From: an uncultured Gammaproteobacteria bacterium
GTDB taxonomy: Bacteria > Pseudomonadota > Gammaproteobacteria > Steroidobacterales > Steroidobacteraceae
Assembly (NCBI GenBank): GCA_963801865.1
Contig: CAWDGY010000008.1
Location: 30,440 to 94,439, forward strand
Reading direction: 5' to 3'
DNA length: 64,000 bases
Position numbers and translations under genes: made by a program. Below are positions 9,393 through 48,979 of the stretch, in pieces. The notes below the pieces were generated by a model, which worked only from the letters and a program-made list of their open reading frames with translations, had not been told where the DNA came from and searched no databases. The first letter of the stretch is position 1. The number at the start of each line of letters is the position of its first letter.

Positions 9393-9457
9393 ATTAGATT
9401 CCGCTCACGGAACTGACCTGTTGGAGAGAAATGCAAATGCCGCCCCCGAGCAGGCTA

Positions 9458-24949: not shown

Positions 24950-25027
24950 GTTCGTATGCGCTCTGCGCGGTGCTTGCATCGCGAAAGCGTGCTAATTTGT
25001 GCGCGATATGCCACCCGAGAACACCAT

Positions 25028-25255
25028 ATGACCACGATAAAAATCACCCACAACGGCCCGCTCCAGGTGGACGGAGCCGATGTTTCGCTCGTTGATTGGA
25101 ACGGGGCCGCCTATGCCATTGCGAAGCGGCCCTTCTACCTGTGCCGCTGCGGTGCCTCGACGAAGAAGCCCTTCTGCGACGGCACCCATTCGAAGATCGG
25201 ATTCAAAGCCGCCGAAGCGGCCGTGCCCGGGAGCGCCGACAAGCCCGCGCAGTGA
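25028..25255 (+). CDS. CDGSH iron-sulfur domain protein
   Basis: Start moved to the ATG at 25028 (MTTIKITHNGPLQV...). Signature CRCGASTKKPFCDGTH. Confidence 0.85.
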   Translation: MTTIKITHNGPLQVDGADVSLVDWNGAAYAIAKRPFYLCRCGASTKKPFCDGTHSKIGFKAAEAAVPGSADKPAQ

Positions 25256-29868: not shown

Positions 29869-32076
29869 CTAGCGGTACTTCGCTTTTGCGTCGAGCAGGC
29901 GCGAGTCCACGAATGCGGGCTTTGTCCCGCCGATGCTGAGCAATGAGGCCAATTGCGGTGCGAGCACCGGGCGGGCGAAATAGAACCCCTGTCCTTCGGG
30001 GCAATGATGGGCTTGCAGAAAGGCGAGCTGCTCGCGCGTCTGGATCCCTTCGGCGACGACGCTCATGTTGAGGCTGCGCCCCATGTTGATCACTGCGCTG
30101 ACGATGCTTGCATCGTCGGAGTCCGAGGTCATATCGCGCACGAACGATTGATCGATTTTCAGCGTATCGATCGGAAAGAGCTTCATGAAGCTCAAGCTCG
30201 AGTACCCGGTGCCGAAATCATCGAGCGCGATCTTCACGCCGATGGCTTTCAGGGCGCGCAGAATATCCGCGGTGGACTTCCAGTCCTGAAGCATGAAGGT
30301 CTCGGTCAATTCTATTTCGAGAAAACGTGGCTCGAGGCGCGATCTGCGCAGGATGTCGCGCACGCCGTCCAGGAAATCCTTGGCCCGCAGCTCCACGGCG
30401 GAAATGTTGATCGCGACGACGATCGGCGCGAGCCCGGCATCCATCCACGCGCGCGCTTGACGGCAAGCCTCCTCCAGCACCCAACGCCCGATGCGCAAAA
30501 TGAGACCCGACTCCTCGGCAATCGGAATGAATTGCGCGGGTTGAACCAGACCGCGCTGCGGGCGCTGCCAGCGAATCAACGCTTCGACCCCCGATATGGC
30601 CCCGGTCGCGAGGTTGACCTTGGGCTGGTAATTCAGGAGAAACTCCTGCCGGTCGATGGCACTGCGCAAATCCGTTTCGACCGCTTGACGCTCGATCGCG
30701 TTGGCGTTCATTTCCGGCTTGAAGAACTGATAGTTGTTGCGGCCGCTGTATTTCGCCTGATACATGGCGAAATCCGCATTCTTCAGCAGCGTCTCCGCGT
30801 CCGCGGCGTCATCGGGATAGGTCGCGATGCCGATGCTCGCCGTGAGGCGCAACTCGTGCTCGCCGATTCGATGCGGCGCCTCCAAAGCCTGGATGATCTT
30901 GTCCGCGCAAACGGCGGCATCGTGCGCATGGACCACATCGGCGAGCAGAATCAAAAATTCGTCGCCGCCTTGCCGGCTTACCGTGTCGGAACTGCGTACG
31001 CAGGCGAGGAGTCTGCGTGCAACGGAGCGCAGCAACTCATCGCCGATCGCGTGGCCGAGGGAGTCATTGATGTGCTTGAAGCGATCCAAGTCGATGAACA
31101 GCAGCGCGACCGAGCTGCCGCTGCGCTGTGCCCGCATGATGGCCTGCTCGAGCCGATCGCTCAACAGGGTGCGATTGGGCACATCGGTGAGGCTGTCGTG
31201 CAACGCCAGCCGCGCCAGCTTGTGCGAGAGCTCCCGCGCCGCGGTTACATCGTGCGCCACCATCACCGCTCCTATGACGCCGCCCTGGCGATCGTGGATC
31301 GGCGCCGCGGAGGCTTCCACGGCGAGTTCCACGCCGTCGCGCCGGATGAGCACGCAGTCGGTTTCCAGGCCGAGGGTCTTATCCTCGATGATGGCTCGCG
31401 TCGACGGACTGTGGACCTTCTCGCGAGCCGCCGCGTCGACGAGCTGAAACACATCGTCCAGCACGCACCCGGCGGCCTGCGCCTGTGTCCATCCCGTCAT
31501 CTTCTCGGCCACCACGTTCAAATACGTGACGTGTCCGCGAAAGTTGCTGCTGATGACGGCATCGCCGATCGAGTTGAGCGTGACTTGGGCGCGCTCCTTT
31601 TCCTCGAACAACGCCTCGGCGTTCTCTGCCCGCGACTCTTCGCTGGTTTGCAGCGCGCGCTCCACGGCGCGCCGGCTGCTGATGTCTCGAAATACGATGA
31701 CCGCGCCGGTGAAGTGCTCGCGGCGGTCGCGCAGCGGCACTGCGCTGTATTCGATGGCCACCCGGCCGGAACGCGCGTTCAATACGGCCGCATGATTCGT
31801 CGGATGCGATCTGTTGGCGGGGTGGCGCAGAGACTCGATGGGATTTTCGATCGGTGTCCCGGCATCGTCGTCGTGAATGATCGAAAAGACGCGTTTCAGC
31901 GGGCGGCCGGCCGCATCGCTCATCGTCCATCCGGACAGCGATTCGGCGATGCGGTTCAAATAGGTGATGCGGCCGCGTGCATCGGTGGTGATGACGGCGT
32001 CGACGATGTTCGCGAGTGCCACCTCGAAGTGCGCTCGTTGAGCTTCGACGTCGTCCCCTCCGGTAGCGGAACCCAC
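29869..32076 (-). CDS. PAS-PAS-GGDEF-EAL c-di-GMP turnover protein
   Basis: Two PAS modules (..DAVITTDARGRITYLN.., ..DAVISSNFRGHVTYLN..). RSSD I-site plus GGDEF. EAL domain with GVEALIRW and DDFGTGYSSL. Confidence 0.9.
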   Translation of the reverse strand: MGSATGGDDVEAQRAHFEVALANIVDAVITTDARGRITYLNRIAESLSGWTMSDAAGRPLKRVFSIIHDDDAGTPIENPIESLRHPANRSHPTNHAAVLNARSGRVAIEYSAVPLRDRREHFTGAVIVFRDISSRRAVERALQTSEESRAENAEALFEEKERAQVTLNSIGDAVISSNFRGHVTYLNVVAEKMTGWTQAQAAGCVLDDVFQLVDAAAREKVHSPSTRAIIEDKTLGLETDCVLIRRDGVELAVEASAAPIHDRQGGVIGAVMVAHDVTAARELSHKLARLALHDSLTDVPNRTLLSDRLEQAIMRAQRSGSSVALLFIDLDRFKHINDSLGHAIGDELLRSVARRLLACVRSSDTVSRQGGDEFLILLADVVHAHDAAVCADKIIQALEAPHRIGEHELRLTASIGIATYPDDAADAETLLKNADFAMYQAKYSGRNNYQFFKPEMNANAIERQAVETDLRSAIDRQEFLLNYQPKVNLATGAISGVEALIRWQRPQRGLVQPAQFIPIAEESGLILRIGRWVLEEACRQARAWMDAGLAPIVVAINISAVELRAKDFLDGVRDILRRSRLEPRFLEIELTETFMLQDWKSTADILRALKAIGVKIALDDFGTGYSSLSFMKLFPIDTLKIDQSFVRDMTSDSDDASIVSAVINMGRSLNMSVVAEGIQTREQLAFLQAHHCPEGQGFYFARPVLAPQLASLLSIGGTKPAFVDSRLLDAKAKYR

Positions 32077-32243
32077 AGTCGGTCAGCCGATTGGCGCGTG
32101 TGACGCCGCGTACACGCACGAAACCCTTGTCGGTACCATCGATTCAGCCTACACAGAAAAATCGTCGGGATTAATCGGCAAGCGCCTCATCGGCCGTAGG
32201 ATGCGGCTGACATCGTGTGAGGGCAATGACGTAAACTGCGCCC

Positions 32244-33095
32244 ATGGTCCAATTCCTATCGCGGCTGCCGATGCGGGCGCTGTACGCGTTCTCGAGTTTT
32301 CTATACTTTCTCGCCTATTACGTCGTGCGTCATCGGCATCTCGTGATCCGTGAGCAGCTGCTCAAGGTGTTTCCGGCCACGTCCGAGGCCGAGCGCGCGG
32401 CCATCCATCGGCGCTTCCTGAAGAATTTCTGCGACGTCATGATGGAGGTGCTGAAATCTGCATCGCTGAGCCCTGAGGCGATGAGCGCGAGAGTCAACAT
32501 TCTCAACTTGCCGCTCGCCCGCGGCTACCTGAACGCCGGCCAATCGGTCATGTTCGTGACTTCGCACCTGTGCAACTGGGAATGGCTTCTGCAAGGGGTC
32601 GCGCTGCAGCTTGGGTATCCTCTCGATGCGGCCTACAAGCCCTTGCACGATGCCTGGGCGGAGCGCTTGATGCTCAAGATCCGCTCACGCTTCGGAGCGC
32701 GGCTGGTGCCGGCCAAGGAGCTGCTCGCCGATTTCCTGCGCCGCCGCGGCGTCGTACGTGCAGTCGCCATGAATGCGGACCAGGCGCCCGTGTCGACCGA
32801 CAAGCGCTACTGGACGCAGTTCCTCGGTCAGGACACCGCCTTCTACGTCGGCGCCGAACAGATCGCGCGAGGCACCCGATTGCCCATCATGTATCTGGTG
32901 ATGCGGCGGGTGCGTCGCGGCCATTACGAGGTCGAACTGCGGCAGTTATGGGACGGCCGCGAAACGCTGCCTGCGAACGCCATCACCGAGCGCTATGCGC
33001 GGGCCTGCGAGCTCGACGTGCTCAAGTCCCCAGCCGATTGGCTGTGGTCGTACCGGCGCTGGCGGTTGAAGAAGCCCTTGTATGGTGCCGACTGA
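32244..33095 (+). CDS. LpxL/LpxM-family (lipid A late) acyltransferase
   Basis: N-terminal membrane anchor, HX4E catalytic motif in VTSHLCNWEW, and a length of about 283 aa. C-terminal ...DWLWSYRRWRLK... is as in lauroyl/myristoyl acyltransferases. Confidence 0.75.
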   Translation: MVQFLSRLPMRALYAFSSFLYFLAYYVVRHRHLVIREQLLKVFPATSEAERAAIHRRFLKNFCDVMMEVLKSASLSPEAMSARVNILNLPLARGYLNAGQSVMFVTSHLCNWEWLLQGVALQLGYPLDAAYKPLHDAWAERLMLKIRSRFGARLVPAKELLADFLRRRGVVRAVAMNADQAPVSTDKRYWTQFLGQDTAFYVGAEQIARGTRLPIMYLVMRRVRRGHYEVELRQLWDGRETLPANAITERYARACELDVLKSPADWLWSYRRWRLKKPLYGAD

Positions 33096-33104
33096 ACGGC
33101 CTGT

Positions 33105-35096
33105 CTACGTCGCTGCCGGCTTGACGCCCGGCGGCTGGAGCGCCGATTGCTTCAGCTTTGCTTCCAAGTGCTTCGCCAGATCCGCGATGGTCGGGTGATC
33201 GAAAAGCTCCGTGAGATCGATGAGACCCGGGAACTCGCGGTCGATGTTCTCGTGAATCTCGATCAGCTTGAGCGAACTGGCCCCGATCTCGAATAGGTTG
33301 TCGTTCACCTCGATCCGCTTTCCCGGCAACGCGTTTTCACAGATCGACTGAAGCTGGGCTTCGAGCTCCGAACCGGTGACGTGAGCTCCGGCATGCGACT
33401 CGCGCAGCTTCTGCAGCGCGGCCAATTCGGCGTCGAATTCGCCCTCGATGTGCGCGACCTCCAACAGATGCCTCTGAACTTTGCCGCTCGTGGTCTTCGG
33501 TATCCGTTTCACCGGGATGACCTGCGCCACCTCGAGTCCGGTGTGCTCATTGATGAGGCGGCTGACGGCGGCGGCGATGGGCAGAAACTCCTCGGTGCTG
33601 CCGCGATGCAGGACGAACACCACCAGCTCTTCGCCCGCGGCGCCCGGCTTGGCGATGCCGGCGGCCACGACTTTGTTCAGATCCAGGCCCGGCGCACGCT
33701 GGGCGATGTTCTCGAGGTCGTAAGGGTAGTAATTCTGGCCGTTGATGAAGATGATTTCCTTGCTGCGGCCGGTGATGTACAGATCACCCTCATGCAGGAC
33801 ACCGACATCGCCGGTATCGACCCAGCCGTCGGCGCCGATGGCGAGGGCGGTCGCCTCGGGATCGCCGAAATAGCCGCGGGTGACGCTCGGGCCGCGGATC
33901 AAAATGTGTCCCACCTGCTCCTCCGGAACGGCGGCGCGCTGCTCATCCGCGATGCGCAATTCCGTGTTCGGAACGACTCGTCCGACGCACATCAATTCGA
34001 TGGCATCGCGCGGATCGGCGGGGTTCACCTCGATGGTGGCTCCGATCCCGAGCTTGTGCCGGTTGGCGCGAATCCAGCGGTAGTCGGCGCCGAGTTCAGG
34101 GAACGTGACGGCGAGACAGGCTTCCGCGAGCCCATACACCGGATACATCGCGCGATGCGCCAGTCCGGTGTAGGCGAGGGCCTGCATGAACTCATTGCAC
34201 AGCTGCACCGAGATCGGCTCGGCGCCGTTGTAAATCGAGCGGATGGACGACAGGTCGACATTCTCCAGCCGGCGATTGCCCAACACCTTGAGAAAATGGC
34301 GATAGCCGAAATTCGGCGAACAGGTGAGAGTCACGCGCTTGTTCGATGCCAGCTGCAACCACAGCAGCGGACGCCGCACGAAGAGGTCTGTCGGCATCAA
34401 GTTGACGTGCGCGCGATTGGCGAATTGCACCAGATAGAAGCCGATCAGACCCATGTCGTGGGTGAGCGGCATCCAGCTCAAGGTCACGTCCTGATCGCTG
34501 TACTTGCCGACGGCCGTGGCACCCGTGATGTTCGCGAGCAAGTTGCCGTGAGTGAGCATGACGCCCTTCGGTTCGCTGGTCGAGCCGGAGGAGAATTGGA
34601 TGAAGGCGAGATCCTCCGCGCTCGGGCGATGCAGCTTCCCCGCCCGCGAGATGTCGGTGATCGATTCGACCAGGAAGGAGCGTGCCTTGAGCTCGGTGAA
34701 CAGCGCCGTCTCTCCGACCTGTTCCGCCAGGACCTGAAGGCGCTCCAGGCTCTTTGCATCCGTGTACAGCAGCGGCTTGCCGAGCTTGCGCGCCACGCGC
34801 AGCAGCTTGTGCCGGTGCTCGTCGCTGATGCCGACGGCCAGCGGTACCGGCACGATGCCGCCGCACACGGCGGCCCAGAAGCCGTCGAGGAACTGCTCGT
34901 TGTTGCTGAGGAAGATGATCAGCTTGTCGCCGCGCTGCGCGCCGATGGCTTGCAGGTGGTGCAGGATGCCGACGGCTCGCGAAAATACGTCGCCGTATTT
35001 CACGCGCCGCTCGGCGTTCTCGCCTTCGACGTAGGTCACGGCGCGATCCACATCGCGGTTGTTCTCGAGAATGTCGAGCAGGGTCGTTTGCGTCAT
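33105..35096 (-). CDS. Fatty-acyl-AMP ligase (FAAL) fused to an acyl/peptidyl carrier domain
   Basis: Start moved to the ATG at 35096 (MTQTTLLDILENN...), which overlaps the P450 stop as ATGA. Adenylation motifs FSSGSTSEPKG, SPNFGY (FAAL-like), YGLAE, TGD, and the Lys in KTTSGKVQR. C-terminal carrier domain has its Ser in LFEIGASSLKLIE. The listed 839-aa ORF is an antisense-overlapping extension. Confidence 0.85.
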   Translation of the reverse strand: MTQTTLLDILENNRDVDRAVTYVEGENAERRVKYGDVFSRAVGILHHLQAIGAQRGDKLIIFLSNNEQFLDGFWAAVCGGIVPVPLAVGISDEHRHKLLRVARKLGKPLLYTDAKSLERLQVLAEQVGETALFTELKARSFLVESITDISRAGKLHRPSAEDLAFIQFSSGSTSEPKGVMLTHGNLLANITGATAVGKYSDQDVTLSWMPLTHDMGLIGFYLVQFANRAHVNLMPTDLFVRRPLLWLQLASNKRVTLTCSPNFGYRHFLKVLGNRRLENVDLSSIRSIYNGAEPISVQLCNEFMQALAYTGLAHRAMYPVYGLAEACLAVTFPELGADYRWIRANRHKLGIGATIEVNPADPRDAIELMCVGRVVPNTELRIADEQRAAVPEEQVGHILIRGPSVTRGYFGDPEATALAIGADGWVDTGDVGVLHEGDLYITGRSKEIIFINGQNYYPYDLENIAQRAPGLDLNKVVAAGIAKPGAAGEELVVFVLHRGSTEEFLPIAAAVSRLINEHTGLEVAQVIPVKRIPKTTSGKVQRHLLEVAHIEGEFDAELAALQKLRESHAGAHVTGSELEAQLQSICENALPGKRIEVNDNLFEIGASSLKLIEIHENIDREFPGLIDLTELFDHPTIADLAKHLEAKLKQSALQPPGVKPAAT

Positions 35097-36388
35097 CTTT
35101 CGGTCACTTGCATCATGAGATTGGAGCGCGGTCGCAGGTTGATTTGCGCCTCGAGCTCGATCGGTTCGTCGCCGAGGCGGGTCAAACGAAAGCGGCGCAC
35201 CATGCGATTCACGTGCACCAGCATTTCGAACATGGCCATGTTCTCCCCGATGCAGTGGCGCGGGCCGACGGAAAAGGGAATGTAGGCGAAGCGGTGCCGC
35301 TCCTTGGCGTCCACCCCGGCGAAGCGCTCGGGCCGGAATTCCTCGGCCTCGCTCCAGAACGCGGGGTGGCGGTGCAAGGTGTAGGGACTGATGAACACAT
35401 CCGTGCGCGCCGGCACGGCAAAGCCCCCAAGCTCGTCGGCCTCCACGGTGCGGCGCGTGAACAGCCAACCGGGCGGATAGAGGCGCAGCGCCTCCTGCAG
35501 CACTTGGTGGGTGAATGCGAGCGATTCGGCGGCGTCGAGACTCAGGGTGTCCCGCGTCGTCCGGTCCGCTTCGGCCTCGAGCTGCGCCGTCGTTTCCGGA
35601 TGCTGGGCGATGAGGTACCAGCACCAGGTGAGCGCCGCGGCGGTGGTCTCATGGCCGGCGACGATCAACGTCAAGACCTCGTCGATCATCTCCTTGTCGC
35701 TCATCGCGGTGCTGTTGTCCCGGTCGCGCGCCGCCATCAGCATGCTCAGGAAATCGAACCGCTCCTCGGGTTCGCGACGGCGGCGTTCGATCAGCTCCGC
35801 CACGAGCTTGGTGAGCGAACGAAAGCGAAATGCGAACTTCAGATCCCGATTCTGTTCCTTGGCGACGACTTCGAACGGATTTGCCCCCAATTGGCGTTCG
35901 AGACGCTCCAGATCACTGCCGAATATCGAGCGCAGCACGATCTGCAGCGTGAGCTCGCTGACATCGTCCGTGATGTTCACCGCCCCGCCCCGTGCGGCCT
36001 GCGTGGCCCAGCGCTCGGCGAACCGCTCGTTGACCTCATGGATCAAGCCGCTGAAGCGATCGATGACTCGCCGATGAAAGCAAGGCTGCATCATGCGGCG
36101 CTGCCGCCGCCAAAAGTCGCCCTCGCTGGTCATGATCCCGTTGCCCAGGAGGATCTTGACCCGATCCATGCCTTCGCCCTTCGTGTAATTGCGGTGATTC
36201 GACAACAGCACGTGTTTGATGTCGTCGGGATGGTTGATGACGTAATTAAACACGCCGCGGCCGGGAGCGAAAACGCGGTAGACGTCGCCGAAGCGCGAAA
36301 AATACTCGCGCAGCCGGGCCAATGATTCTTCGCTCCCGCCGAGGTCGAAGCCCTCGGCAGGGCCTGGGGGAAGGGCCACTGTTTGCAT
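35093..36388 (-). CDS. Cytochrome P450 (class with PPGP N-terminus, CYP4/CYP102-like)
   Basis: Start moved to the ATG at 36388 (MQTVALPPGP...). I-helix AGHETTA, ExxR in QEALRLYPP, and haem loop FSVGPRHCIG. Confidence 0.88.
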   Translation of the reverse strand: MQTVALPPGPAEGFDLGGSEESLARLREYFSRFGDVYRVFAPGRGVFNYVINHPDDIKHVLLSNHRNYTKGEGMDRVKILLGNGIMTSEGDFWRRQRRMMQPCFHRRVIDRFSGLIHEVNERFAERWATQAARGGAVNITDDVSELTLQIVLRSIFGSDLERLERQLGANPFEVVAKEQNRDLKFAFRFRSLTKLVAELIERRRREPEERFDFLSMLMAARDRDNSTAMSDKEMIDEVLTLIVAGHETTAAALTWCWYLIAQHPETTAQLEAEADRTTRDTLSLDAAESLAFTHQVLQEALRLYPPGWLFTRRTVEADELGGFAVPARTDVFISPYTLHRHPAFWSEAEEFRPERFAGVDAKERHRFAYIPFSVGPRHCIGENMAMFEMLVHVNRMVRRFRLTRLGDEPIELEAQINLRPRSNLMMQVTER

Positions 36389-36474
36389 CGGCGCATTGTA
36401 GCGTAGCTGGACTGGCCTGCAGGCCGCACACGCTGTGCGTGACCGCTTTGCGTAGGCTTGCGCGGCGCGCGACA

Positions 36475-37227
36475 ATGAGTCCTGTGGAAAAAAAACCCGA
36501 CGGCGGCCTTCGTAATACCCTCTACGAGCAACAAACACGGTCGAGCCGGCGCCTGACTCGCAGCCGTCTTTCCCTCTACAAGATGCTGGTGCCCCCGGGT
36601 CTCGGGTTACTGCGCCTGGTGTGGAGGTGGTGCCGGGTGGTGCGGGTGGTGGGTACTGAGCACATTTCGGCGGCGCTCGCCCGGGCCCCTTCCTTCATCC
36701 CGGTGTACTGGCATCAGCACCAAATCTTCTGCGTGAAGCAGCTGCTCGACATGCGGGATGCCGGCGTCAAGTTGGGGTTCTTGATCAGCCCGTCGGTGGA
36801 CGGAGAACTCGGCGCCATGCTCGTTCGACGTGCCGGCGGGGAAGTGATCCGTGGGTCATCGTCTTATACCGGAGCGCGCGCCTTGCGCGACTATTATCAG
36901 GCGCTCGCGCACGAGGGCATCTCTCCGGCGATCACGCCGGACGGTCCGCGCGGACCGCCGTGGAAGTTCAAACCGGGGGCGATCTTGCTCTCGCAGCTAT
37001 CGCAGCGGCCCATCATTCCCATGGCGTACGCCGCCTCGCACGCCTGGAAAATCAAATGGGACCGTTTCGTCATTCCCGTCCCAGGCGCGCGCATCGCGAT
37101 CGTGGTGGGCGAGCCGGTGTATGTCGCGAAAGGGCTCGATGCCGCGGGGCTCGTCCGGCTACAGCAGGAGATGGAGCGGAATTTGATGGGGTTGTACGCC
37201 CAAGCCAGGGCCGTTTTGCGGCTTTAA
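36475..37227 (+). CDS. DUF374 family protein (LpxJ-like lysophospholipid/lipid A acyltransferase superfamily)
   Basis: Start moved to the ATG at 36475 (MSPVEKKP...). DUF374 core ISPSVDGELGAMLVRRAGGEVIRGSSS.GARAL......GISPAITPDGPRGP..KFKPGAILLSQLS..PIIP. Confidence 0.7.
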   Translation: MSPVEKKPDGGLRNTLYEQQTRSSRRLTRSRLSLYKMLVPPGLGLLRLVWRWCRVVRVVGTEHISAALARAPSFIPVYWHQHQIFCVKQLLDMRDAGVKLGFLISPSVDGELGAMLVRRAGGEVIRGSSSYTGARALRDYYQALAHEGISPAITPDGPRGPPWKFKPGAILLSQLSQRPIIPMAYAASHAWKIKWDRFVIPVPGARIAIVVGEPVYVAKGLDAAGLVRLQQEMERNLMGLYAQARAVLRL

Positions 37228-37410: not shown

Positions 37411-40095
37411 ATGGCGATAGCTCCCAACGATCCCCGACACCCCGACCTCACCGCATCGGATGTCCTCTCTCCGCAAACCTGGCCCAGGCGCGGGATTCGC
37501 CCCGCGGTGGGGCTCGATGTCATCTGCACCAAAATCGCGGTGGATTTCCAAACGATGACGGCGGCTACCGCCGCAGACTGCATTTACGCGAATTTGGAAT
37601 TGCTGCGCGATGCGACGCGCACCGATACCGCCTTTCACATGAGTTTCGACACGGAGACATCGACCTTCGCCGATGTCCAGGTGGCGCGCGGATTGTTGGC
37701 GACGGGAAACCCCGAGCAGCTGCGCGGCCAAAACTTCGACGTGCTGCCCTGGCTACGCTCGCGACTCGCGCCGCTGCGCGTAACGGAATTTCGAGATACG
37801 GCCAATCCCCGGCCCGATCAGGCCGAAGATGCGGCGGTGTGGGCCGACCTGGGGATCGGATCGATTTTGATGATCGGCTACGTCATCGAGGGCCGTCCGG
37901 CGGGGGTTCTCGGCATCGCCGGTGCGCGCCCGCGCGACAATTGGGAGGTGCAGCTGCACCTGCTCATGAAGCTGGTTGGCAGCAGCCTCGCGACCGGACT
38001 CGAGCGCATCGAGATCCAGGCGCATTTGCGCGATCTGGAGGAGCGCAATGAGCTGGCACTCTACAGCGCGAACGACGGCCTATGGGATTTCGACACGCTC
38101 AACAACCGCGTGTATCTGTCGCCGCGCTGGAAGGCGATGCTCGGCTACGACGAAGAGCACGTAGAGCAGGCGCCGGATTGGCGGACACTCGTGCATTCGG
38201 ACGACATGTCGCGGGTTCAGGCCGCCATTCGCGATCACGTGGCGGGCAAGACGCCGATCTTCGAGAGTCTGCACCGGATGCGCCATGCGTCGGGCGAGTG
38301 GCGCTGGGTGATCAGCCGGGCCAAGGCGCGGGTGGATGAGAAAGGCCGCTTGCTGCGCCTGGTGGGTGTGGAGCTCGACATCACCGAACGCAAGCTCTAC
38401 GAAGAGGCGCTGTTCCGGGAAAAGGAAAGCGCGCAGATCACGCTGCAGAGCATCGGCGACGGTGTCATCACCACCGACGCCAAGGGCGTGATCGACTACT
38501 TGAATCCGGTGGCGGAATCCCTGACGGGGTGGCGCCTCGAGGACAGCCAGGGGCGCGCGATCGAGGAGATCTTCCGCGCATTTCACGAGGAGACCTGCGA
38601 GCCGCTCGAAAATCCTCTGGCGGTGGCGATCCGCCGCACCCGCTCGATCAAATCGGTGCGCCCCATGCTGCTCATCCGGCGCGACGGCAATGAAATCTAT
38701 GTCGAAAGCACTGCCTCGCCGATTCGCGACGGCAGCGGCGCGGTCTCGGGCGGCGTACTCGTATTCCACGATGTCAGCGAGGCGCGCGAGCTGAATCGCC
38801 GCCTGAGCTACCACGCCAGTCACGACGTGCTCACCGGTCTGGTCAATCGCCGCGAGTTCGAGAATCGCATGGAACGGGCGCTCAAGAGCGCGAAGGCGCG
38901 CGAGACATCCTATGCGCTGTGCTGCCTCGACCTCGATCAGTTCAAGATCGTCAACGATACCTGCGGCCACAGCGCCGGCGACGCCCTGCTCGGGCAGGTG
39001 GGCGCGCTGCTGAAATCGAAGGTTCGGTGGCGCGATACCCTGGCGCGGCTCGGCGGCGATGAGTTTGGGATTTTGCTCGAGAGCTGCTCACTCGACGAGG
39101 CGATGCGCACGGCGGAGTCACTGCGCGAAGCGGTGCGCAATTTCAAGTTCACCTGGGAAGAGCGCACGTTTCGCCTGGGCGCGAGCATCGGTGTGGTGCC
39201 GATTTCGGCCGACAATGCCGACGTCGCCTCGGTTCTGAGCGCCGCCGACAGCGCCTGTCAGGCGGCCAAGGAAGCCGGACGCAACCGCGTGCACAGCTTC
39301 GAGGAAAACGACATCGATCTGATGCGCCGGCGCCGCGAAATGCAGTGGGCGGCACGCATCAACAACGCGCTCGAGGAAGGCCGATTCGAGCTGTTCCGGC
39401 AGACGATCCTGCCGCTCCAGCAAGTGGAGAACGGCGCGCATTACGAGCTGCTGCTGCGCATGCGCGACGAGACGGGCAAGATCGTCGCGCCGGATAATTT
39501 CATCACCGCGGCCGAGCGCTACGGCATCACGCCGAGCATCGATCGCTGGGTCATCGAGAACGCCTTTCGCTGGCTCGTCTCCGAGGCGGACGAGCGCGAG
39601 AAGCTCGCCATGTGCTCGATCAATCTGTCCGGTCAGAGCCTCGGCGATGACAAGTTCCTGCCGTACGTGATCGATCAGTTCCACCGTAGCGGCCTGGACG
39701 CGACCAAAATCTGCTTCGAGATCACGGAGACCGCGGCGATAGCGAGCTTCTCGCAGGCCAACCGCTTCATCCAGGCGTTGAAGGAATTGGGCTGCAAGTT
39801 TGCGCTGGACGACTTCGGCACGGGACTCTCCTCGTTCGGCTACTTGAAGCACTTTCCGGTCGATTACCTGAAAATCGACGGCAGCTTCGTCAAAGAGATC
39901 CTGCACGATCCGATCGACCGCGAGATGGTGCGCTCGATCAACGAGATCGGGCATCTGACCGGCAAGCAAACGATCGCCGAATTCGCCGAGAACCTCGAGA
40001 TCATCAACATGCTGCGCAGCCTCGGCGTCGACTACGCGCAGGGCTACGGCGTGTCCCAGCCGCAGCGCGTACTCAAGGCCGCGAATAGCGCCTGA
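37411..40095 (+). CDS. N-terminal sensor (GAF-like)-PAS-PAS-GGDEF-EAL c-di-GMP turnover protein
   Basis: PAS modules (..NDGLWDFDTLNNRVYLSPRW.., ..DGVITTDAKGVIDYLN..). RWRD I-site plus GGDEF. EAL domain with the ELL variant (HYELLLRM) and DDFGTGLSSF. Confidence 0.9.
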   Translation: MAIAPNDPRHPDLTASDVLSPQTWPRRGIRPAVGLDVICTKIAVDFQTMTAATAADCIYANLELLRDATRTDTAFHMSFDTETSTFADVQVARGLLATGNPEQLRGQNFDVLPWLRSRLAPLRVTEFRDTANPRPDQAEDAAVWADLGIGSILMIGYVIEGRPAGVLGIAGARPRDNWEVQLHLLMKLVGSSLATGLERIEIQAHLRDLEERNELALYSANDGLWDFDTLNNRVYLSPRWKAMLGYDEEHVEQAPDWRTLVHSDDMSRVQAAIRDHVAGKTPIFESLHRMRHASGEWRWVISRAKARVDEKGRLLRLVGVELDITERKLYEEALFREKESAQITLQSIGDGVITTDAKGVIDYLNPVAESLTGWRLEDSQGRAIEEIFRAFHEETCEPLENPLAVAIRRTRSIKSVRPMLLIRRDGNEIYVESTASPIRDGSGAVSGGVLVFHDVSEARELNRRLSYHASHDVLTGLVNRREFENRMERALKSAKARETSYALCCLDLDQFKIVNDTCGHSAGDALLGQVGALLKSKVRWRDTLARLGGDEFGILLESCSLDEAMRTAESLREAVRNFKFTWEERTFRLGASIGVVPISADNADVASVLSAADSACQAAKEAGRNRVHSFEENDIDLMRRRREMQWAARINNALEEGRFELFRQTILPLQQVENGAHYELLLRMRDETGKIVAPDNFITAAERYGITPSIDRWVIENAFRWLVSEADEREKLAMCSINLSGQSLGDDKFLPYVIDQFHRSGLDATKICFEITETAAIASFSQANRFIQALKELGCKFALDDFGTGLSSFGYLKHFPVDYLKIDGSFVKEILHDPIDREMVRSINEIGHLTGKQTIAEFAENLEIINMLRSLGVDYAQGYGVSQPQRVLKAANSA

Positions 40096-42861: not shown

Positions 42862-42908
42862 TTAACTAACACCCACTGTTCCACCAAACGATTTTGAGGA
42901 GAAGTGCC

Positions 42909-43514
42909 ATGACCACCCTGCTGCAACTCCACGCCAGCATCAACAACAGCAACGGCCAGTCGAGCCAGTTGGCCAACCAGTTCGTCGCGGCTTTCCTGGA
43001 AAAGCATCCGCACACCAAGATCGTGGTGCGCGACGTCGCCGCAGGGGAGGCGGTGCCGCATCTGGATGCCGATCGCTTCGGCGCCTTCATCACCAAACAG
43101 GAAGAGCGCAGCCACGCGCAGCACGCGGTCGTTGCCTATTCCGACGCGCTCATCGCCGAACTGCAGCAGGCCGACGTGATCGTCCTGGGTCTGCCGATGT
43201 ACAACTTCGGCGTACCATCGCAGCTCAAGGCCTATTTCGATCACATCGCTCGCGCCGGCGTCACCTTCAAGTACACCGAGAAGGGCCCCGAGGGTTTGCT
43301 TACCGGCAAGAGAGTGTTCGTGTTCGCCGCGCGCGGCGGTCTCTATGCCGGCACGCCGATGGATACGCAGACCGGCTACGTGCGCGACTTTTTGCACTTT
43401 CTCGGCATGACCGATGTCGAATTCGTCTACGCTGAAGGTCTCGCCGTCAGCCCGCAAAGCAAAGAGGCGGGTCTCGCGAGGGCCGTGGCCGAGATCGCAC
43501 GTCTCGCCGCCTGA
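42909..43514 (+). CDS. azoR: FMN-dependent NADH-azoreductase
   Basis: Start moved to the ATG at 42909, behind GAGGAGAAG. Collinear with E. coli AzoR: ...VRDVAA..VPHLD..., DVIVLGLPMYNFGVPSQLKAYFDHIARAGVTFKYTEKGPEGLLTGK. Confidence 0.88.
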   Translation: MTTLLQLHASINNSNGQSSQLANQFVAAFLEKHPHTKIVVRDVAAGEAVPHLDADRFGAFITKQEERSHAQHAVVAYSDALIAELQQADVIVLGLPMYNFGVPSQLKAYFDHIARAGVTFKYTEKGPEGLLTGKRVFVFAARGGLYAGTPMDTQTGYVRDFLHFLGMTDVEFVYAEGLAVSPQSKEAGLARAVAEIARLAA

Positions 43515-44461: not shown

Positions 44462-45076
44462 CTAGCCACGCCAGTCGGTAAACACGAGGCGCACGCGGCG
44501 GGCGAGCCGGCGGAACATTTGCGTGAAGGTGATGCTCGAATCGGCCAGATACATCCCGAAATGCTGATTCAACAACGCGAAGATGACTGCCGTTGCGTCC
44601 CCCAACGGCAGTCGATGATCGAGTTGCCCGGCGTTTCGGTATTTCTCCAAGAGGCGGCGGATCTGCGCCTGTGCCTCGGATTCGGCCTCGAGCACCAGTT
44701 CCTTCAACAGCCCCTCGTTCCCAACTCCCGGAAATACCGTGAGTTGCAGCAGTTCCCGGCTCGCCCAATCGTGTCCCCCCAGATCGCGGTAGGCGGCGAG
44801 CAACGCGACCATCGACTCGGCCGGATCGACGAGGGGACCGTCGATGAGGCGTTGCGCACGGGCAAGCATGTTGGTCAACTCCGGGCGCAGCAGCGCGTGG
44901 ACGATTCCCTGCTTGGAATCGAAGTACTTGTACACCGTGGCGACTCCGACCCCGGCTTCCGCGGCGATCTGCTCGAAGGTGGTACGCGCGTACCCATGCT
45001 TTTCGAATAATCGCGCTGCCGCCGCCAACATGGCGCTGCGCCGCATTTGCTTTTGCGCGTTACGGCGCCCGGTCAA
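44462..45076 (-). CDS. TetR/AcrR-family transcriptional regulator (last gene of the copper operon)
   Basis: HTH AAARLFEKHGYARTTFEQIAAEAGVGVATVYKYFDSKQG. Proposed TTG start at 45076 (MTGRRNAQKQ...) overlaps the SCO1 stop as TTGA. The start is uncertain; the listed ORF extends to 45232, inside the SCO1 gene. Confidence 0.75.
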   Translation of the reverse strand: MTGRRNAQKQMRRSAMLAAAARLFEKHGYARTTFEQIAAEAGVGVATVYKYFDSKQGIVHALLRPELTNMLARAQRLIDGPLVDPAESMVALLAAYRDLGGHDWASRELLQLTVFPGVGNEGLLKELVLEAESEAQAQIRRLLEKYRNAGQLDHRLPLGDATAVIFALLNQHFGMYLADSSITFTQMFRRLARRVRLVFTDWRG

Positions 45077-45630
45077 CGTCGCATCTTTTCGGTCAGACGA
45101 CTTTGAATTTGACCGGCGAGCTCGGAGACGGACTGCTGCGGATGGAACGTCTCGACGATGCGGCCGTCCGGATTCGCGAGATACATGAGCATGCCGTGAT
45201 CGATGTAATCCGTCGAATCCCTGCGCTGCCACGGCACGCCGAAGGTTTGAGCGGCATCCGCGACGGCCTCAGGGCTTCCGGACAAGGCGCGCAGGCGCGG
45301 ATGGAACCGGCTCGCGAAATCGCGCAGCTGCGCCGGCGAATCACGCGGGTCCAGGCTCACGAAGAGGGGCAGGATGGGATCGGCGGCGGCCCCGAGACGG
45401 TCGAGGACCACCGACATTTTCCTCAACGCCGCGGGGCACACTTCGGGACAGTTCGTGTAACCGAAGTACACCAGCAGCCAGCGCCCCGCCAGTTCGTGCG
45501 CATCGAGAGGGTGTCCGAACTGGTCGATCATGCGGGAGTCGCTCGCTCCGCAAACTGAAGCCGCGAGGTTCAAGACGACCACGGCTGCCAGCATCCGAGC
45601 GCACGCCATTGGCCTCATGCCCGGCCTCAT
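45073..45630 (-). CDS. SCO1/SenC-family copper chaperone / thiol-disulfide protein
   Basis: CxxxC in FGYTNCPEVCPAAL plus the distal His in IDHGMLMYL, with an N-terminal membrane anchor. The ATG at 45630 overlaps the oxidase stop (ATGA). Confidence 0.85.
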   Translation of the reverse strand: MRPGMRPMACARMLAAVVVLNLAASVCGASDSRMIDQFGHPLDAHELAGRWLLVYFGYTNCPEVCPAALRKMSVVLDRLGAAADPILPLFVSLDPRDSPAQLRDFASRFHPRLRALSGSPEAVADAAQTFGVPWQRRDSTDYIDHGMLMYLANPDGRIVETFHPQQSVSELAGQIQSRLTEKMRR

Positions 45631-46652
45631 ATGGCGACGATCCAACCCATGGCACCGCGCTCGGCCATCCGACTCTGATGGGGATGAAACATGTATCGGC
45701 CGCGACGCGGCAGACGAAACTCGAGAATCGCGCGTTCCGCCGGCCCGAGGCTGACGATGTCGGTGTGTTCATGGGCGGAGACCGACGTACCGGACCGAAA
45801 GAGGTCGAAGGTCTGGGCGTGCAAATGAAACGATGCAATGGGGTCGGGCTCGACCATGTTCATCAGATAGATTCGAACCAGCTCGCCCACCGGCACTTTG
45901 AGCGGAAAACGCTCGTAGTATCCCGCCATGCCGTTCCAGGCATAAACCTCATTGTGCCCGTCGCCGTCGACGTCGAAACCGCATAGACACAGAAGAAATT
46001 CGTGTGCGGTGGGACGGGGCACGAGCGGATCCACGATCATGGCGCCGTACATGCCTTTGGCGACGTGCCGCGCGTAGGGCGGTACGTGGCAATGGTAAGG
46101 GTGCAGTCCGGCAGGCCCAGCCTCGAATTCGTAGGAGTGATCCTCGCCTTTCGCGACGCGGCCGAGTCCGTCCTGCGACACATCGTGCGCGCCATGAAAA
46201 TGCACGCTGTGGGCGGAATTGGCGCGGTTCCCGAGCGCGACCTTCACGCGCTCTCCGACCGTTGCGCGCACGATGGGGCCCGGCACCGTTCCGCCGTACG
46301 CCCATGCCGTGATGTTCTGGCCGTCGGCAACCTCGAGCGTCGTTTCGATCACCGACAAATCGAACGTGCGCACGCCGCTCTGCGGCGGCGACCAGGGCGG
46401 CGGTGTGTGTAATTCGTCACGACTTCCAGCCGCGAGATAGCCGGGCGGCGTGAACTTCGCCGAATAAGCGGCGCCCATGCCGGCGCCCGAGGTATCGGCT
46501 GCGCAATCGACATCGAGGAGCGGCAGCGATGCCGTGCGGGTGTCATTCGCGCCCGTGCGCCGCTTAACGGCCGGCCACGCCCAGCCGCCGAGGAAGCCCA
46601 ATGCGCCGCCCAGACCCCCGAGTCCAAACAAGTCGCGCCGGCGAATAGCCAT
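45627..46652 (-). CDS. Tat-exported two-domain multicopper oxidase (T1 site in domain 1)
   Basis: Start moved to the ATG at 46652 (MAIRRRDLFGLGG..., a twin-arginine signal). Copper ligand motifs HSVHFHG, YHCHVPPYARHVAKGM, FHLHAQ and FHPHQSRM. Confidence 0.8.
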   Translation of the reverse strand: MAIRRRDLFGLGGLGGALGFLGGWAWPAVKRRTGANDTRTASLPLLDVDCAADTSGAGMGAAYSAKFTPPGYLAAGSRDELHTPPPWSPPQSGVRTFDLSVIETTLEVADGQNITAWAYGGTVPGPIVRATVGERVKVALGNRANSAHSVHFHGAHDVSQDGLGRVAKGEDHSYEFEAGPAGLHPYHCHVPPYARHVAKGMYGAMIVDPLVPRPTAHEFLLCLCGFDVDGDGHNEVYAWNGMAGYYERFPLKVPVGELVRIYLMNMVEPDPIASFHLHAQTFDLFRSGTSVSAHEHTDIVSLGPAERAILEFRLPRRGRYMFHPHQSRMAERGAMGWIVAI

Positions 46653-46654
46653 CG

Positions 46655-46963
46655 TCAGCTGATTCCGCCCAAGGCGACTCCCAGCACCAACACGAGTGCA
46701 TACGCGGCGCCGCCGCCCAACGCGATGAACTTGATGCGCGGGGCGAGATGCGAACCGCTCAGGAACAGATAGCCAAGGGCGCCGATGAAGGGGAGGGCGA
46801 ATATCAGAAATGCCCAGATCCACGCCCTCACCGCCGTCGCGTCGCCGCGCCGACCAAGGTCCCAGAGCGCGAGCGTGGTCCACACCGCGTAGAGAAGCAA
46901 CGGCAGCAGAAAGGCATACAGCCCGAGGAGCATTTGCAAGTTACCCGGCAATGTGACGTTCAT
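46655..46963 (-). CDS. PLDc_N-type small membrane protein (paralog 2)
   Basis: Start moved to the ATG at 46963, behind GGAGG. 102 aa. LLPLLLYAVWTTLALWDLGRR...WIWAFLIFALPFIGALGYL is typical of PLD-nuclease N-terminal-domain small proteins. Confidence 0.7.
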   Translation of the reverse strand: MNVTLPGNLQMLLGLYAFLLPLLLYAVWTTLALWDLGRRGDATAVRAWIWAFLIFALPFIGALGYLFLSGSHLAPRIKFIALGGGAAYALVLVLGVALGGIS

Positions 46964-46977
46964 CGATACCTCCAGGA

Positions 46978-47316
46978 TCAACTCAATGCTTTGGGTCCGA
47001 GCGGGCCGCCGGCAAGCCAAATGCCGACCGCCAGAGGCAGCAGCCAGACGCAAAGTCCGGTGACCACGATGGCGAGCCGCGACGCTCGGGTGAGCGTGCG
47101 TGCGCTGCTCAGCAAGTACCACGCGCCGCCCAGCAGCGGCACCAGGAGGACGAATGCCCCCCATCCCCACTTCGCCGTGTCGGCGCGCTCGTTCAGGTCC
47201 ATCATGGCAAGCGATGCCCACGTGGCGTACAGAAGAAACGGCAACAGGTAGAGGTAGACCACGAACCAGACCTGAAAAATGGTCGTGGGACCGGCCAGTG
47301 AGAACAGCGAGGGCAT
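46978..47316 (-). CDS. PLDc_N-type small membrane protein (paralog 1)
   Basis: Start moved to the ATG at 47316, behind GGAGA. 112 aa. LLPFLLYATWASLAMMDLNER...WGWGAFVLLVPLLGGAWYL parallels the next gene. Confidence 0.7.
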   Translation of the reverse strand: MPSLFSLAGPTTIFQVWFVVYLYLLPFLLYATWASLAMMDLNERADTAKWGWGAFVLLVPLLGGAWYLLSSARTLTRASRLAIVVTGLCVWLLPLAVGIWLAGGPLGPKALS

Positions 47317-47317
47317 C

Positions 47318-48979
47318 TCAATTCTCCTTGCGCGCGACGATGCGGTCCGCGCTCGTCGAGTGCTCGGCGGGTGTCTTGATCGATTCGAGGTCGAGCCGTG
47401 CTGCTTCGAACACGTGGACCGCCGGGCGCACGGGAGCATTCGCACCGCCGGGGATGCTCGCTTGCGGCGGCGGCACCGGCCGCGTGCGGTAATCGCTCAG
47501 TGTGAAGCGGCCCAGGCGGATCTGCGCGATGGAGCCGAAGAAGGTCATCGATGTCGAGAGGTCGGATGCCACCGGGATGCGAGCGGCCCGGCATCCGTTC
47601 AATGTCTCGAGTCCCCACGGTATGGAAGTTCGATAGCTGTTGCTGGAGAAACAATTGTGCATGGTGCCCAAGCCGCCGGCCGCAAGATCTGCGCGTCCGG
47701 ATCCCTGGATGACGTTGCTGCGCACCACGTGGCCGGTCGAGGGCCAATAGTGGCGGTCCAGAAGCGGCACGATCAGAATCCCATTATTGCGGCTGCGCAC
47801 GACGAGGTTGTGCTCCACCCGATTGTTGTGCGTCCCGACGAGCGCAATGCCCTGACCGGCCAGCGTCTCGGTCGCATAGAAGCCGGCGGCCTCGTTGTCG
47901 AAACCGCTATCGCTCACCACGTTTCCCATGATGGTCGTATCGCGGCCCGGCGGGTTGAGCTCGATGTCGAACGTCGTCGTGCTGATCCCGCTGCGGTTGT
48001 GCTCGAAGCGCGAATTCAGGATATACATGTCGCCGCTGGAATTCGTGCCGGAATAGCCGAGCCCGCTGTAGTTGCCGATGACATCGTTCAACACCACCCG
48101 GCAGGGCGCGCATTGGCCGACGTAGAACGCCGAGTCGGGAGATCCGCTCGCAAGGGAGTGTTCGAACAGCCCGTCGCTGGAGCCGAACGCATAGATTCCA
48201 TAGTCGCCGTTGTTGTAGGCGGTCAGGTACGAGCCGCGAAACCCCTGGACACCGGTCCAGAAGAATCCATTGAGCGTGAAGTTTCGCGCGGTCATGTTCT
48301 CGACCGCCACTCCGTTGCCGCCGATCATGATGCCGGTGGCGAGTTCGAACTTGCCGTCGAGAATGACCGCGTTCCGATCCACGCCGCGCAAGGTGATGCT
48401 CGGTGTCGTGACGAAGACGGCCTCGTTGTATTCTCCCTGGTCGATGAGCACGAGGTCGCCGGGATTTGCCGCATCCACCCCGTTCTGAATGGTCGGGTAC
48501 TCTTGCGGTACGCGGCGGGTGACGCCCGTGGGTATCTCGACGGTCGGGAGGACGCCGCGCGTGCCCGAGGGCGGCGTATATTGGATGTTGCCGACGACCA
48601 CGACGCCGATCATTCCCGTCTTGCCGTCCGGCGTCGCATGAAAGCTGCAATAGAAGGGATACACCCCTTCCTTGCCGATCACGATCTCGGTCATGTCGTC
48701 CGGACGCATCTTGATGTTGCCGAAGGTTTTCTCGCTCGACCAGGATTTGTCGACCGCGATGACATTGTGGTCGTTGCGTCCGACGTTCATGAACACGATC
48801 GATCCGCCGGCGGGGATCCTGACGATGGCGGGCGAATAGCTGTTGTCCGCCATTGAAACGAGCACGGTGCCGGTGGGTTTCACCTCCGGCTTGCCGCATC
48901 CGCCCAAGGCCGCCGTCAAGCCGAGCGCTGCGATGATGCAGAAGGTTCCGTGGCGCGATTTTAGAACCGTCTTGTCCAT
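47318..48979 (-). CDS. Lipoprotein fusing a cupredoxin domain to a NosD-like right-handed parallel beta-helix
   Basis: Lipobox ALGGC. Cupredoxin ligands: His in RNDHNV and C..H........M in YPFYCSFHATPDGKTGM. This is followed by TIQNGVDAANPGDLVLIDQGEYNEAV and repeated G/N-rich beta-helix turns. Confidence 0.75.
   Translation of the reverse strand: MDKTVLKSRHGTFCIIAALGLTAALGGCGKPEVKPTGTVLVSMADNSYSPAIVRIPAGGSIVFMNVGRNDHNVIAVDKSWSSEKTFGNIKMRPDDMTEIVIGKEGVYPFYCSFHATPDGKTGMIGVVVVGNIQYTPPSGTRGVLPTVEIPTGVTRRVPQEYPTIQNGVDAANPGDLVLIDQGEYNEAVFVTTPSITLRGVDRNAVILDGKFELATGIMIGGNGVAVENMTARNFTLNGFFWTGVQGFRGSYLTAYNNGDYGIYAFGSSDGLFEHSLASGSPDSAFYVGQCAPCRVVLNDVIGNYSGLGYSGTNSSGDMYILNSRFEHNRSGISTTTFDIELNPPGRDTTIMGNVVSDSGFDNEAAGFYATETLAGQGIALVGTHNNRVEHNLVVRSRNNGILIVPLLDRHYWPSTGHVVRSNVIQGSGRADLAAGGLGTMHNCFSSNSYRTSIPWGLETLNGCRAARIPVASDLSTSMTFFGSIAQIRLGRFTLSDYRTRPVPPPQASIPGGANAPVRPAVHVFEAARLDLESIKTPAEHSTSADRIVARKEN

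Follow-up and report, generated by a model that had tools for sequence, protein, structure and literature searches.

A conserved P450/FAAL-carrier gene pair with lipid A-type acyltransferase neighbors as a possible acyl-delivery cassette for an envelope lipid in Steroidobacteraceae

In rhizobia, the carrier AcpXL, partnered by the specialized LpxL-family enzyme LpxXL, delivers to lipid A a hydroxylated very-long chain that is built by dedicated fatty-acid-synthase (FAS)-type enzymes (FabF/FabZ XL and a dehydrogenase), the source of its hydroxyl group. In Escherichia coli, Aas adenylates a fatty acid, puts it on the acyl carrier protein (ACP) AcpP and moves it to a membrane lyso-lipid through an HX4D acyltransferase, independently of polyketide synthases (PKS) and nonribosomal peptide synthetases (NRPS). 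The clustered almEFG genes of Vibrio cholerae encode an adenylate-forming, DltA-like amino-acid ligase (AlmE), a separate phosphopantetheinylated carrier (AlmF), and a divergent PF03279 transferase (AlmG) that moves the carried glycine onto lipid A (PMC4278540). Fatty acyl-AMP ligases (FAALs) are described as typically tied to PKS/NRPS systems (PMC8460268), and FAAL fusions to lysophospholipid acyltransferases are mentioned only as curiosities (PMC8460268; PMC12820801). In the JamABC/TtuABC-type alkyne cassettes, a FAAL, an oxidative tailoring enzyme, and a dedicated ACP form a portable unit, and the products pass to PKS/NRPS lines or a thioesterase (PMC8406139). Members of the DUF374 family are proven lipid A 3'-secondary acyltransferases that replace LpxM (PMC6148475). 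Here, we analyzed a 64,000-nt stretch of a metagenome-assembled genome (MAG) from a soil member of the Steroidobacteraceae (Gammaproteobacteria), hereafter the window, in which genes for a cytochrome P450 and for a FAAL fused to a carrier domain (FAAL-carrier) lie between those for an LpxL/LpxM-superfamily acyltransferase (LpxL-like) and a DUF374/LpxJ-family acyltransferase (Table 1). The P450/FAAL-carrier pair is a fixed unit found outside PKS/NRPS clusters at all orthologous loci examined, and the LpxL-like gene is co-inherited with it in three unrelated contexts, namely Steroidobacteraceae, Burkholderiales MAGs, and one unclassified lineage. In our judgment, the odds are about even that the locus serves to deliver acyl chains to an envelope lipid independently of PKS/NRPS.

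Architecturally, AlmEFG comes closest to this locus. As in that cluster, an adenylating enzyme, a phosphopantetheinyl carrier, and a PF03279 transferase are encoded together and co-conserved; unlike in AlmEFG, the ligase is of the FAAL and not the DltA type, the carrier is fused, the cargo would be a fatty acid, and P450 and DUF374 genes, which AlmEFG lacks, are present. The precedent named in the original prediction, an account made from the sequence of this locus alone, was AcpXL/LpxXL, with which the locus indeed shares a dedicated non-AcpP carrier and a specialized LpxL-family enzyme. However, neither the window region nor any of the orthologous loci inspected contained FAS-type elongation genes (ketosynthase, dehydratase); instead, the FAAL would take a ready-made acid and the P450 would supply the oxygen. 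The alkyne cassettes differ in their membrane desaturase, which takes the place of a P450, and in their free-standing ACP, while Aas differs in having a PlsC-type acyltransferase fused to the ligase, in using AcpP and in having no oxygenase, whereas the window encodes a separate LpxL-type acyltransferase and a fused carrier. An Aas-type NCBIfam model (NF006386) was among the weaker matches. LpxJ of Helicobacter, Campylobacter, and Rickettsia belongs to the same Pfam family as the window DUF374 protein, which retains the essential W-H, D, and W residues at matching spacing, but no FAAL-carrier, P450, or phosphopantetheinyl transferase (PPTase) partner has been reported for the characterized LpxJ enzymes. 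In the original prediction, the four-gene architecture was not known to have been described, and searches of the accessible literature likewise found no description of a P450/FAAL-carrier/LpxL-like set. The cassette is a conserved exception to the association of FAALs with PKS/NRPS, accompanied as it is by acyltransferases of the lipid A type and, in one relative, by sphingolipid genes.

Sequence inspection and a Pfam scan recovered all four genes, every motif quoted in the original prediction, the two intergenic spacers, and the ATGA overlap between the P450 stop and the FAAL start (read ...GAA AGA TGA / ATG ACG CAA...), and each of the five families it had named (Lip_A_acyltrans, DUF374, AMP-binding, PP-binding, and p450) was matched. 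Start choices agree with homolog lengths (407 to 445 aa for the P450 and mostly 227 to 259 aa for DUF374); a 338-aa DUF374 call in one related locus, L083, is an outlier that probably swallows the adjoining PPTase reading frame. The exact sequence of the window FAAL-carrier had no database record, and relatives were used instead. The Pfam scan, covering 30 reading frames across 7.7 to 53.6 kb of the window (29 with family matches), gave no match to a PKS/NRPS-type domain (ketosynthase, condensation, thioesterase, or reductase), a free ACP, or a ferredoxin, in agreement with the claim that PKS/NRPS genes, a thioesterase, a separate ACP, and a ferredoxin/reductase partner are missing nearby. The four-gene block is bounded on both sides by PAS-GGDEF-EAL genes.

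Conservation was determined in 80 species-level genomes carrying a ligase ortholog at 59 to 84% identity, all Steroidobacteraceae-type MAGs, in which the other genes were located by tblastn; testable loci served as denominators, and a close group (A; ligase identity of at least 70%) was separated from a subgroup at 62% identity (B). The P450 gene was directly upstream of the FAAL-carrier gene at 35/38 close-group and 35/36 subgroup-B loci (70/74 in total), with the DUF374 gene further upstream at 33/34 and 30/33, respectively (63/67 in total). The LpxL-like gene was convergent and adjacent at 34 of 35 close-group loci, compared with 6 of 35 in subgroup B. The four-gene arrangement, recurring in dozens of species-level genomes, is not due to chance. 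Given that synteny within one family proves little, the search was extended to more distant relatives.

Four MAGs assigned to Burkholderiales/Betaproteobacteria (L081, L082, L085, and L090; group C) encode a P450, a FAAL-carrier, and a convergent 283-aa LpxL-like protein, at 43 to 51% identity to the window proteins, followed by a PPTase. The surroundings of the Burkholderiales cassettes are an rRNA operon and TctC genes and have nothing else in common with the window. One contig, L089, carries the full rRNA operon (5S, 23S, two tRNAs, and 16S) directly upstream of the cassette, which explains why several contigs end there. The same P450/FAAL-carrier/LpxL-like trio stands beside sulfate-assimilation genes in the unclassified lineage (L087), and a further locus, L086, holds DUF374, a PPTase fragment, P450, and FAAL-carrier. 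The order of P450 then FAAL-carrier, with the two genes overlapping or at most 11 nt apart, was found in every lineage seen (window, L082, L083, L085, L087, L090, and L171). When metagenomes were searched in reverse with an LpxL-like profile, all orthologs of at least 63% identity adjoined a FAAL gene where the contig was long enough, and those of the 50%-identity class lay behind genes for a Fur regulator, a membrane-fusion protein (MFP), and an RND pump. P0146, a stand-alone FAAL-carrier of 46% identity from L088, has neither a P450 nor an LpxL-like neighbor, and the linkage is thus limited to the orthologous clade. Ketosynthase, condensation, thioesterase, and reductase domains were absent from about 15 annotated orthologous loci spanning ±8 to 10 kb; no PKS/NRPS cluster was present at any orthologous locus examined, so the expectation that the FAAL-carrier/P450 pair occurs outside such clusters was borne out. 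The co-conservation of four families implied by the original prediction stood for P450, FAAL-carrier, and LpxL-like across the three contexts, but DUF374 proved to be restricted to Steroidobacteraceae-type loci, and the LpxL-like gene was mostly not adjacent in subgroup B.

The ligase carries the motifs of the ANL adenylation fold (SSGSTSEPKG, SPNFGY, YGLAE, TGD, and PKTTSGK). Its top NCBIfam model is a fatty acyl-AMP ligase (NF006624; 373.9 bits, below the cut-off of 600), and by sequence it appears FAAL-like, yet outside the curated FAAL subfamilies. Residues 332 to 373 align without gaps to the FAALs of E. coli (3PBK) and Legionella (3KXW), and McyG, a non-FAAL relative, is about 20 residues shorter exactly within this region, which corresponds to the expected site of the FAAL-specific insertion; the location of the insertion in 3PBK is as described previously (PMC8460268) and was used here without re-measurement. 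The carrier serine is unchanged across 20 diverse homologs, and its presence in a fused PP-binding domain is consistent with acyl-AMP transfer to a holo-carrier rather than to CoA. Further out, an exhaustive profile-free search returned relatives of two kinds, stand-alone FAAL-carriers (43 to 49% identity) and the N-terminal FAAL-carrier loading modules of giant NRPS/PKS proteins (30 to 40%). These modules as the nearest non-orthologous relatives, the NCBI label of 'non-ribosomal peptide synthetase' on the orthologs, and the usual company of FAALs would all suit a protein that, with the P450, loads an in-trans starter for a PKS/NRPS lipopeptide line elsewhere in the genome. However, neither the annotated orthologous loci nor the scanned window genes encode a ketosynthase, condensation, thioesterase, or reductase domain, and what is conserved alongside the pair are genes for lipid acyltransferases and a PPTase; we consider such a stand-alone loader very improbable.

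The LpxL-like protein scored 101.4 bits on PF03279 (cut-off 22.3), covering 270 of 295 profile positions. Its catalytic HX4E motif (HLCNWE, residues 108 to 113) aligned to HFGTWE of Acinetobacter baumannii LpxM, and H108 and E113 are invariant in 46 homologs. Against curated lipid A models, it fell far below the cut-offs, scoring 88.8 bits on the best, NF006270 (cut-off 248), 59.2 on TIGR02207 (297.8), and 39.8 on TIGR02208 (336). With orthologs from three other lineages included, scores on LpxL/LpxM/PatA models were 86 to 126 bits against cut-offs of 209 to 540, none of which was reached, and the Burkholderiales copy scored 69 to 88 bits on the LpxL subfamily model NF005399/PRK06946 (cut-off 343). 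These profiles indicate a separate subfamily and not an equivalog of curated LpxL/LpxM. Scores this far under the curated cut-offs fit an accessory paralog with its own donor, and the acyl donor of this enzyme is probably the fused carrier. We give about even odds to a supply of acyl chains from the FAAL-carrier to the LpxL-like enzyme, a link resting on their co-inheritance in three contexts.

A fused carrier is inert unless primed by a PPTase. This need was overlooked by the original prediction; other lineages have a gene for this enzyme next to the cassette, and the window has none. Group-C loci encode a HetI/Sfp-type PPTase beside the LpxL-like gene. In subgroup B, the gap between DUF374 and P450 is filled by a fast-evolving frame of 200 to 250 aa, whose start region overlaps the P450 upstream region and whose end overlaps the DUF374 start (L084, L047, and 15 other subgroup-B loci). 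As a single sequence, this frame had no Pfam or NCBIfam match. Nonetheless, it carries motifs of the Sfp type (FSIxHSG...VGxDxE...AREAxxKA), its profile aligned with those of group-C PPTases in hhalign (probability 90.9%, E 1.2e-6), and weak ACPS matches were obtained for 8/10 of its members. We interpret it as a putative divergent Sfp-type PPTase that is missed by standard single-sequence scans. With 86 bp left in the gap and no PPTase detectable by tblastn across the whole 64 kb of the window, the window lineage has lost the subgroup-B-type PPTase.

The DUF374 protein scored 66.5 bits on PF04028 (cut-off 26.8). Residues essential in Rickettsia typhi LpxJ are W60, H61, D132, and W172 (PMC6148475), and, by motif and spacing and not by alignment to LpxJ, the window protein has W79-H80, D156, and W195 (spacings of 76 and 39 residues vs. 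71 and 40). It may serve as a further acyltransferase in the system or else be the housekeeping LpxJ. Its linkage is confined to Steroidobacteraceae-type loci, and because the rRNA operon occupies the corresponding position in Burkholderiales, DUF374 does not belong to the universal core. The best evidence for DUF374 as a member of the system rather than a neighbor is the subgroup-B arrangement, in which a PPTase-DUF374 operon faces the P450-FAAL-carrier operon.

The P450 has the PPGP motif, an I-helix AGHETTA, EALR (ExxR), and the Cys-ligand loop FSVGPRHCIG; its I-helix is of the normal O2-activating kind, and the protein is soluble, with no membrane anchor. Its designation in the original prediction as a fatty-acid hydroxylase is not supported by the nearest characterized relatives, which are of the CYP97 and CYP170/pentalenene oxygenase types. 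The top PDB relatives were the carotenoid hydroxylases CYP97A3/C1 (E 1.6e-61), 7WZL, and CYP170A1, with CYP4B1/CYP102 trailing at 1e-38 to 1e-34, and the best NCBIfam matches were terpenoid oxidases. The fatty-acid label is therefore an assumption, and hydroxylation is the chemistry that we infer. A version in which the cargo is a non-fatty carboxylic acid (an oxidized isoprenoid or hopanoid side chain) esterified to lipid A is suggested by this resemblance to terpenoid oxidases, but we regard it as extremely unlikely. A BioI-like role, in which the P450 cleaves acyl-ACP to pimeloyl-ACP, was set aside, as bio genes were linked in no locus. Three redox proteins are encoded in the window, a CDGSH Fe-S protein, a Flavodoxin_2 quinone reductase, and a cNMP-binding pyridine-nucleotide-disulfide oxidoreductase, all at least 7 kb from the P450 gene.

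In the proposed delivery route, an Sfp-type PPTase, whose gene in the window genome would lie outside the 64 kb and which is encoded next to the cassette in sister lineages, would first prime the carrier. The FAAL domain, whose family assignment is shown, would then adenylate a free fatty acid, the presumed substrate, and attach it as a thioester to the phosphopantetheine arm of the carrier fused at its C terminus. The coupled P450 would oxygenate the acyl chain either before loading or on the carrier, a step that appears dispensable in at least one lineage. From the acyl-S-carrier, the membrane-associated LpxL-like enzyme (HX4E, LpxM/PatA fold) would O-acylate an inner-membrane glycolipid, for which lipid A or Kdo2-lipid IVA would be the most likely candidate. 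The DUF374/LpxJ-like enzyme might likewise use the acyl-S-carrier to attach a second chain, or it may be an ordinary 3'-secondary acyltransferase that shares the locus by chance.

Several findings weigh against this route. In subgroup B, the LpxL-like gene is usually 5 to 7 kb or more downstream, past the Fur-MFP-RND operon, and at 14/30 such loci, it was not within 8 kb. In L165 and L169, a 50%-identical LpxL-like gene adjoins lspA-ileS-ribF, and the 8 kb around it contain no FAAL gene; the LpxL-like gene may be a core, housekeeping gene in the order that holds these two loci. In L171, P450/FAAL-carrier/PPTase genes (ligase 48% and P450 51% identical) are part of a betaproteobacterial sphingolipid locus, and the contig, which extends 3.6 kb past the pair, showed no LpxL-like gene over that distance. 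A P450 is missing from L089, where a clean deletion leaves its last ~120 nt and the FAAL-carrier, LpxL-like, and PPTase genes are retained, making the P450 a tailoring accessory. Neither a P450 redox partner nor a PPTase was found in the window. The P450 is nearest to terpenoid/carotenoid oxidases, ahead of CYP4/CYP102, although homology this distant does not fix its substrate. Finally, the predicted fold of the LpxL-like protein resembles LpxM, which acts on lipid A, and PatA, which acts on phosphatidylinositol mannosides, to a similar degree.

The genomic placements among these findings would be expected if the LpxL-like and DUF374 proteins were ordinary late lipid A acyltransferases using AcpP chains, like the LpxL + LpxJ pairs of Epsilonproteobacteria and Rickettsia, and if the P450/FAAL-carrier were an independent module for another lipid, sharing the locus by inherited synteny. 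The proven role of DUF374 members at the 3'-secondary position fits this explanation, as does the location of the subgroup-B LpxL-like gene beside housekeeping ispH-lspA-ileS-ribF, at L165 and L169 without a nearby FAAL gene, and the company of sphingolipid genes kept by the L171 cassette. The adjoining GGDEF-EAL gene is also equally syntenic in Steroidobacteraceae with no obvious functional tie. In contrast, the P450/FAAL-carrier/LpxL-like trio stays together in Burkholderiales and in L087, where the surroundings otherwise have nothing in common with those in the window, and PPTase genes adjoin the LpxL-like gene (group C) or share an operon with DUF374 (subgroup B). Burkholderiales are expected to possess their own canonical LpxL, and the copy in their cluster scores far below the cut-off of the LpxL subfamily model, as given above. 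Coincidental neighborhood appears unlikely to us.

The string of co-directional genes in subgroup B runs Fur regulator, MFP, RND pump, and LpxL-like, with LpxL-like last, and starts right after the FAAL-carrier gene (L083, L047, and also L147, L152, L158, L162, L166, and L168). The pump may export the product, or a metal-efflux operon may have inserted. In the window, tblastn searches for Fur-MFP-RND orthologs and for sphingolipid genes found none, except for a distant RND.

The sphingolipid genes of L171 comprise a second FAAL, a free ACP, a serine palmitoyltransferase (582 bits, above the equivalog cut-off), and, upstream, inositol-phosphate-type CDP-alcohol and nucleotidyl transferases. The triad of FAAL, ACP, and serine palmitoyltransferase is a known bacterial arrangement (PMC9386255). 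This setting implies that the cassette is portable between lipid pathways and not tied to a single acceptor enzyme, and it bears on which lipid the LpxL-like enzyme would acylate. An AlphaFold2 (AF2) model of that protein (pLDDT 87.4, pTM 0.85) searched against the PDB with Foldseek matched LpxM (5KN7/5KNK; E 4e-14, TM 0.77) and PatA (E about 3e-11, TM 0.70 to 0.79), beyond which no PDB match was below E 0.01, so the fold cannot identify lipid A as acceptor. The same mechanism could thus acylate another glycolipid, an aminolipid, a lyso-lipid, or a hydroxyl of an attached chain; this would agree with scores far under every lipid A equivalog cut-off and with the existence of PF03279 members that do not acylate lipid A, namely PatA and AlmG (PMC11631085; PMC4278540). 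Nevertheless, the top sequence models are still lipid A lauroyl-transferases (NF006270 and TIGR02207), an LpxJ-family gene is co-located, and no alternative acceptor-pathway genes were present among the window frames scanned, and we rate another acceptor as improbable. Because of those sequence models and the co-located LpxJ-family gene, lipid A is the leading candidate as acceptor, an assignment that we make only tentatively.

More broadly, P450/FAAL-carrier(/PPTase) might be a portable cassette that makes oxygenated acyl-carrier donors from free or recycled fatty acids for envelope-lipid remodeling, with an LpxL-family switch of donor from AcpP to the fused carrier in Steroidobacteraceae and some Burkholderiales, and with use in sphingolipid synthesis in another betaproteobacterium. 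We regard this wider proposal as speculative and rather unlikely. If it is true, lipid A or a related glycolipid would acquire a hydroxy- or oxo-acyl chain without the involvement of FAS II or LpxO. Delivery through the cassette would represent a new Gram-negative way of equipping an outer-membrane lipid with an oxygenated fatty acid, possibly a scavenged one, as well as a new donor specificity in the LpxL family and a role for a P450 in building the envelope. In the soil, peat, and bog metagenomes sampled, Steroidobacteraceae are common, and hundreds of near-identical copies were recovered; the lipid would accordingly be widespread in the environment. With only three or four genes (plus the PPTase) involved, the hypothesis is directly testable.

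Table 1. Coordinates of features in the window and at related loci
Sequence	Feature	Position	Strand	Remarks
Window	LpxL/LpxM-superfamily acyltransferase, 283 aa	32244-33095	+	PF03279 Lip_A_acyltrans, E 6.9e-29
Window	HX4E motif of LpxL-like protein	32565-32582	+	H108-E113
Window	Spacer, 9 nt, between convergent stops of LpxL-like and FAAL-carrier genes	33096-33104		stops 33095/33105
Window	FAAL fused to carrier, 663 aa	33105-35096	-	AMP-binding (PF00501) E 2.4e-56; PP-binding E 7.4e-11
Window	Carrier domain	33165-33329	-	phosphopantetheine-attachment Ser607/608 in GASSL, 33270-33284
Window	Adenylation domain	about 33867-35042	-	
Window	FAAL-type insertion (expected site)	within 33978-34103	-	
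Window	ATGA overlap of P450 stop and FAAL start	35093-35096	-	
Window	Cytochrome P450, 431 aa	35093-36388	-	p450 (PF00067), E 2.2e-77, 261 bits
Window	Divergent intergenic region, 86 bp, P450/DUF374	36389-36474		starts at 36388 and 36475
Window	DUF374/LpxJ-family acyltransferase, 250 aa	36475-37227	+	PF04028, E 1.6e-18
Window	PAS-GGDEF-EAL gene	37411-40095	+	just 3' of DUF374
Window	Distant RND	22-2679		tblastn
Window	cNMP-binding pyridine-nucleotide-disulfide oxidoreductase	7710-9392		
Window	ECF sigma factor, then Ser/Thr protein kinase	13248-14988	+	
Window	Spermine/spermidine-synthase-domain protein, 994 aa	16837-19821	+	
Window	CDGSH Fe-S protein	24956-25255		
Window	Flavodoxin_2 quinone reductase	42894-43514		
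Window	Copper-handling cluster	45073-48979	-	
L083	Fur-MFP-RND-LpxL-like string	12043-18122		
L047	Fur-MFP-RND-LpxL-like string	10712-15985		
L047	Putative subgroup-B PPTase	6048-6797	-	
L084	Putative subgroup-B PPTase	8087-8758	-	
L089	rRNA operon	3978-10001		
L171	P450/FAAL-carrier/PPTase in sphingolipid locus	1-11402		
L085	B12-binding radical SAM gene, 600 aa	3996-5798	-	between FAAL-carrier and LpxL-like
L082	356-aa protein	5584-6654	-	after PPTase
L090	356-aa protein	5148-6218	-	after PPTase

Some Burkholderiales cassettes hold additional genes. The radical SAM protein of L085 is weakly like BchE, HpnJ/HpnR, and lipid C-methylases and could contribute an extra chain-tailoring step. A conserved 356-aa protein without a Pfam match follows the PPTase in L082 and L090, and not in L085.

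A promoter and terminator scan of 31.9 to 37.6 kb of the window was uninformative overall: no sigma-70 consensus was seen in the gap between P450 and DUF374, and no terminator-like hairpin in the convergent spacer. Long frames antisense to the GGDEF-EAL, FAAL, and P450 genes (405 to 716 aa; 29953-32103, 33381-35285, and 35108-36325, all on the + strand) are the usual artifact of a 62% G+C genome and not overlapping genes; the single one examined had no family match.

The PAS-GGDEF-EAL gene next to DUF374 is constant in position throughout Steroidobacteraceae and is better conserved than the lipid genes, with 82 to 96% amino acid identity over its full length in close relatives (about 71 to 84% for the ligase) and 69 to 78% in subgroup B. 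Elsewhere, the window encodes an extracytoplasmic function (ECF) sigma factor followed by a Ser/Thr protein kinase, a large protein with a spermine/spermidine-synthase domain, and a copper-handling cluster made up of SCO1/SenC, a multicopper oxidase, and a 553-aa protein with cupredoxin and NosD-like beta-helix domains.

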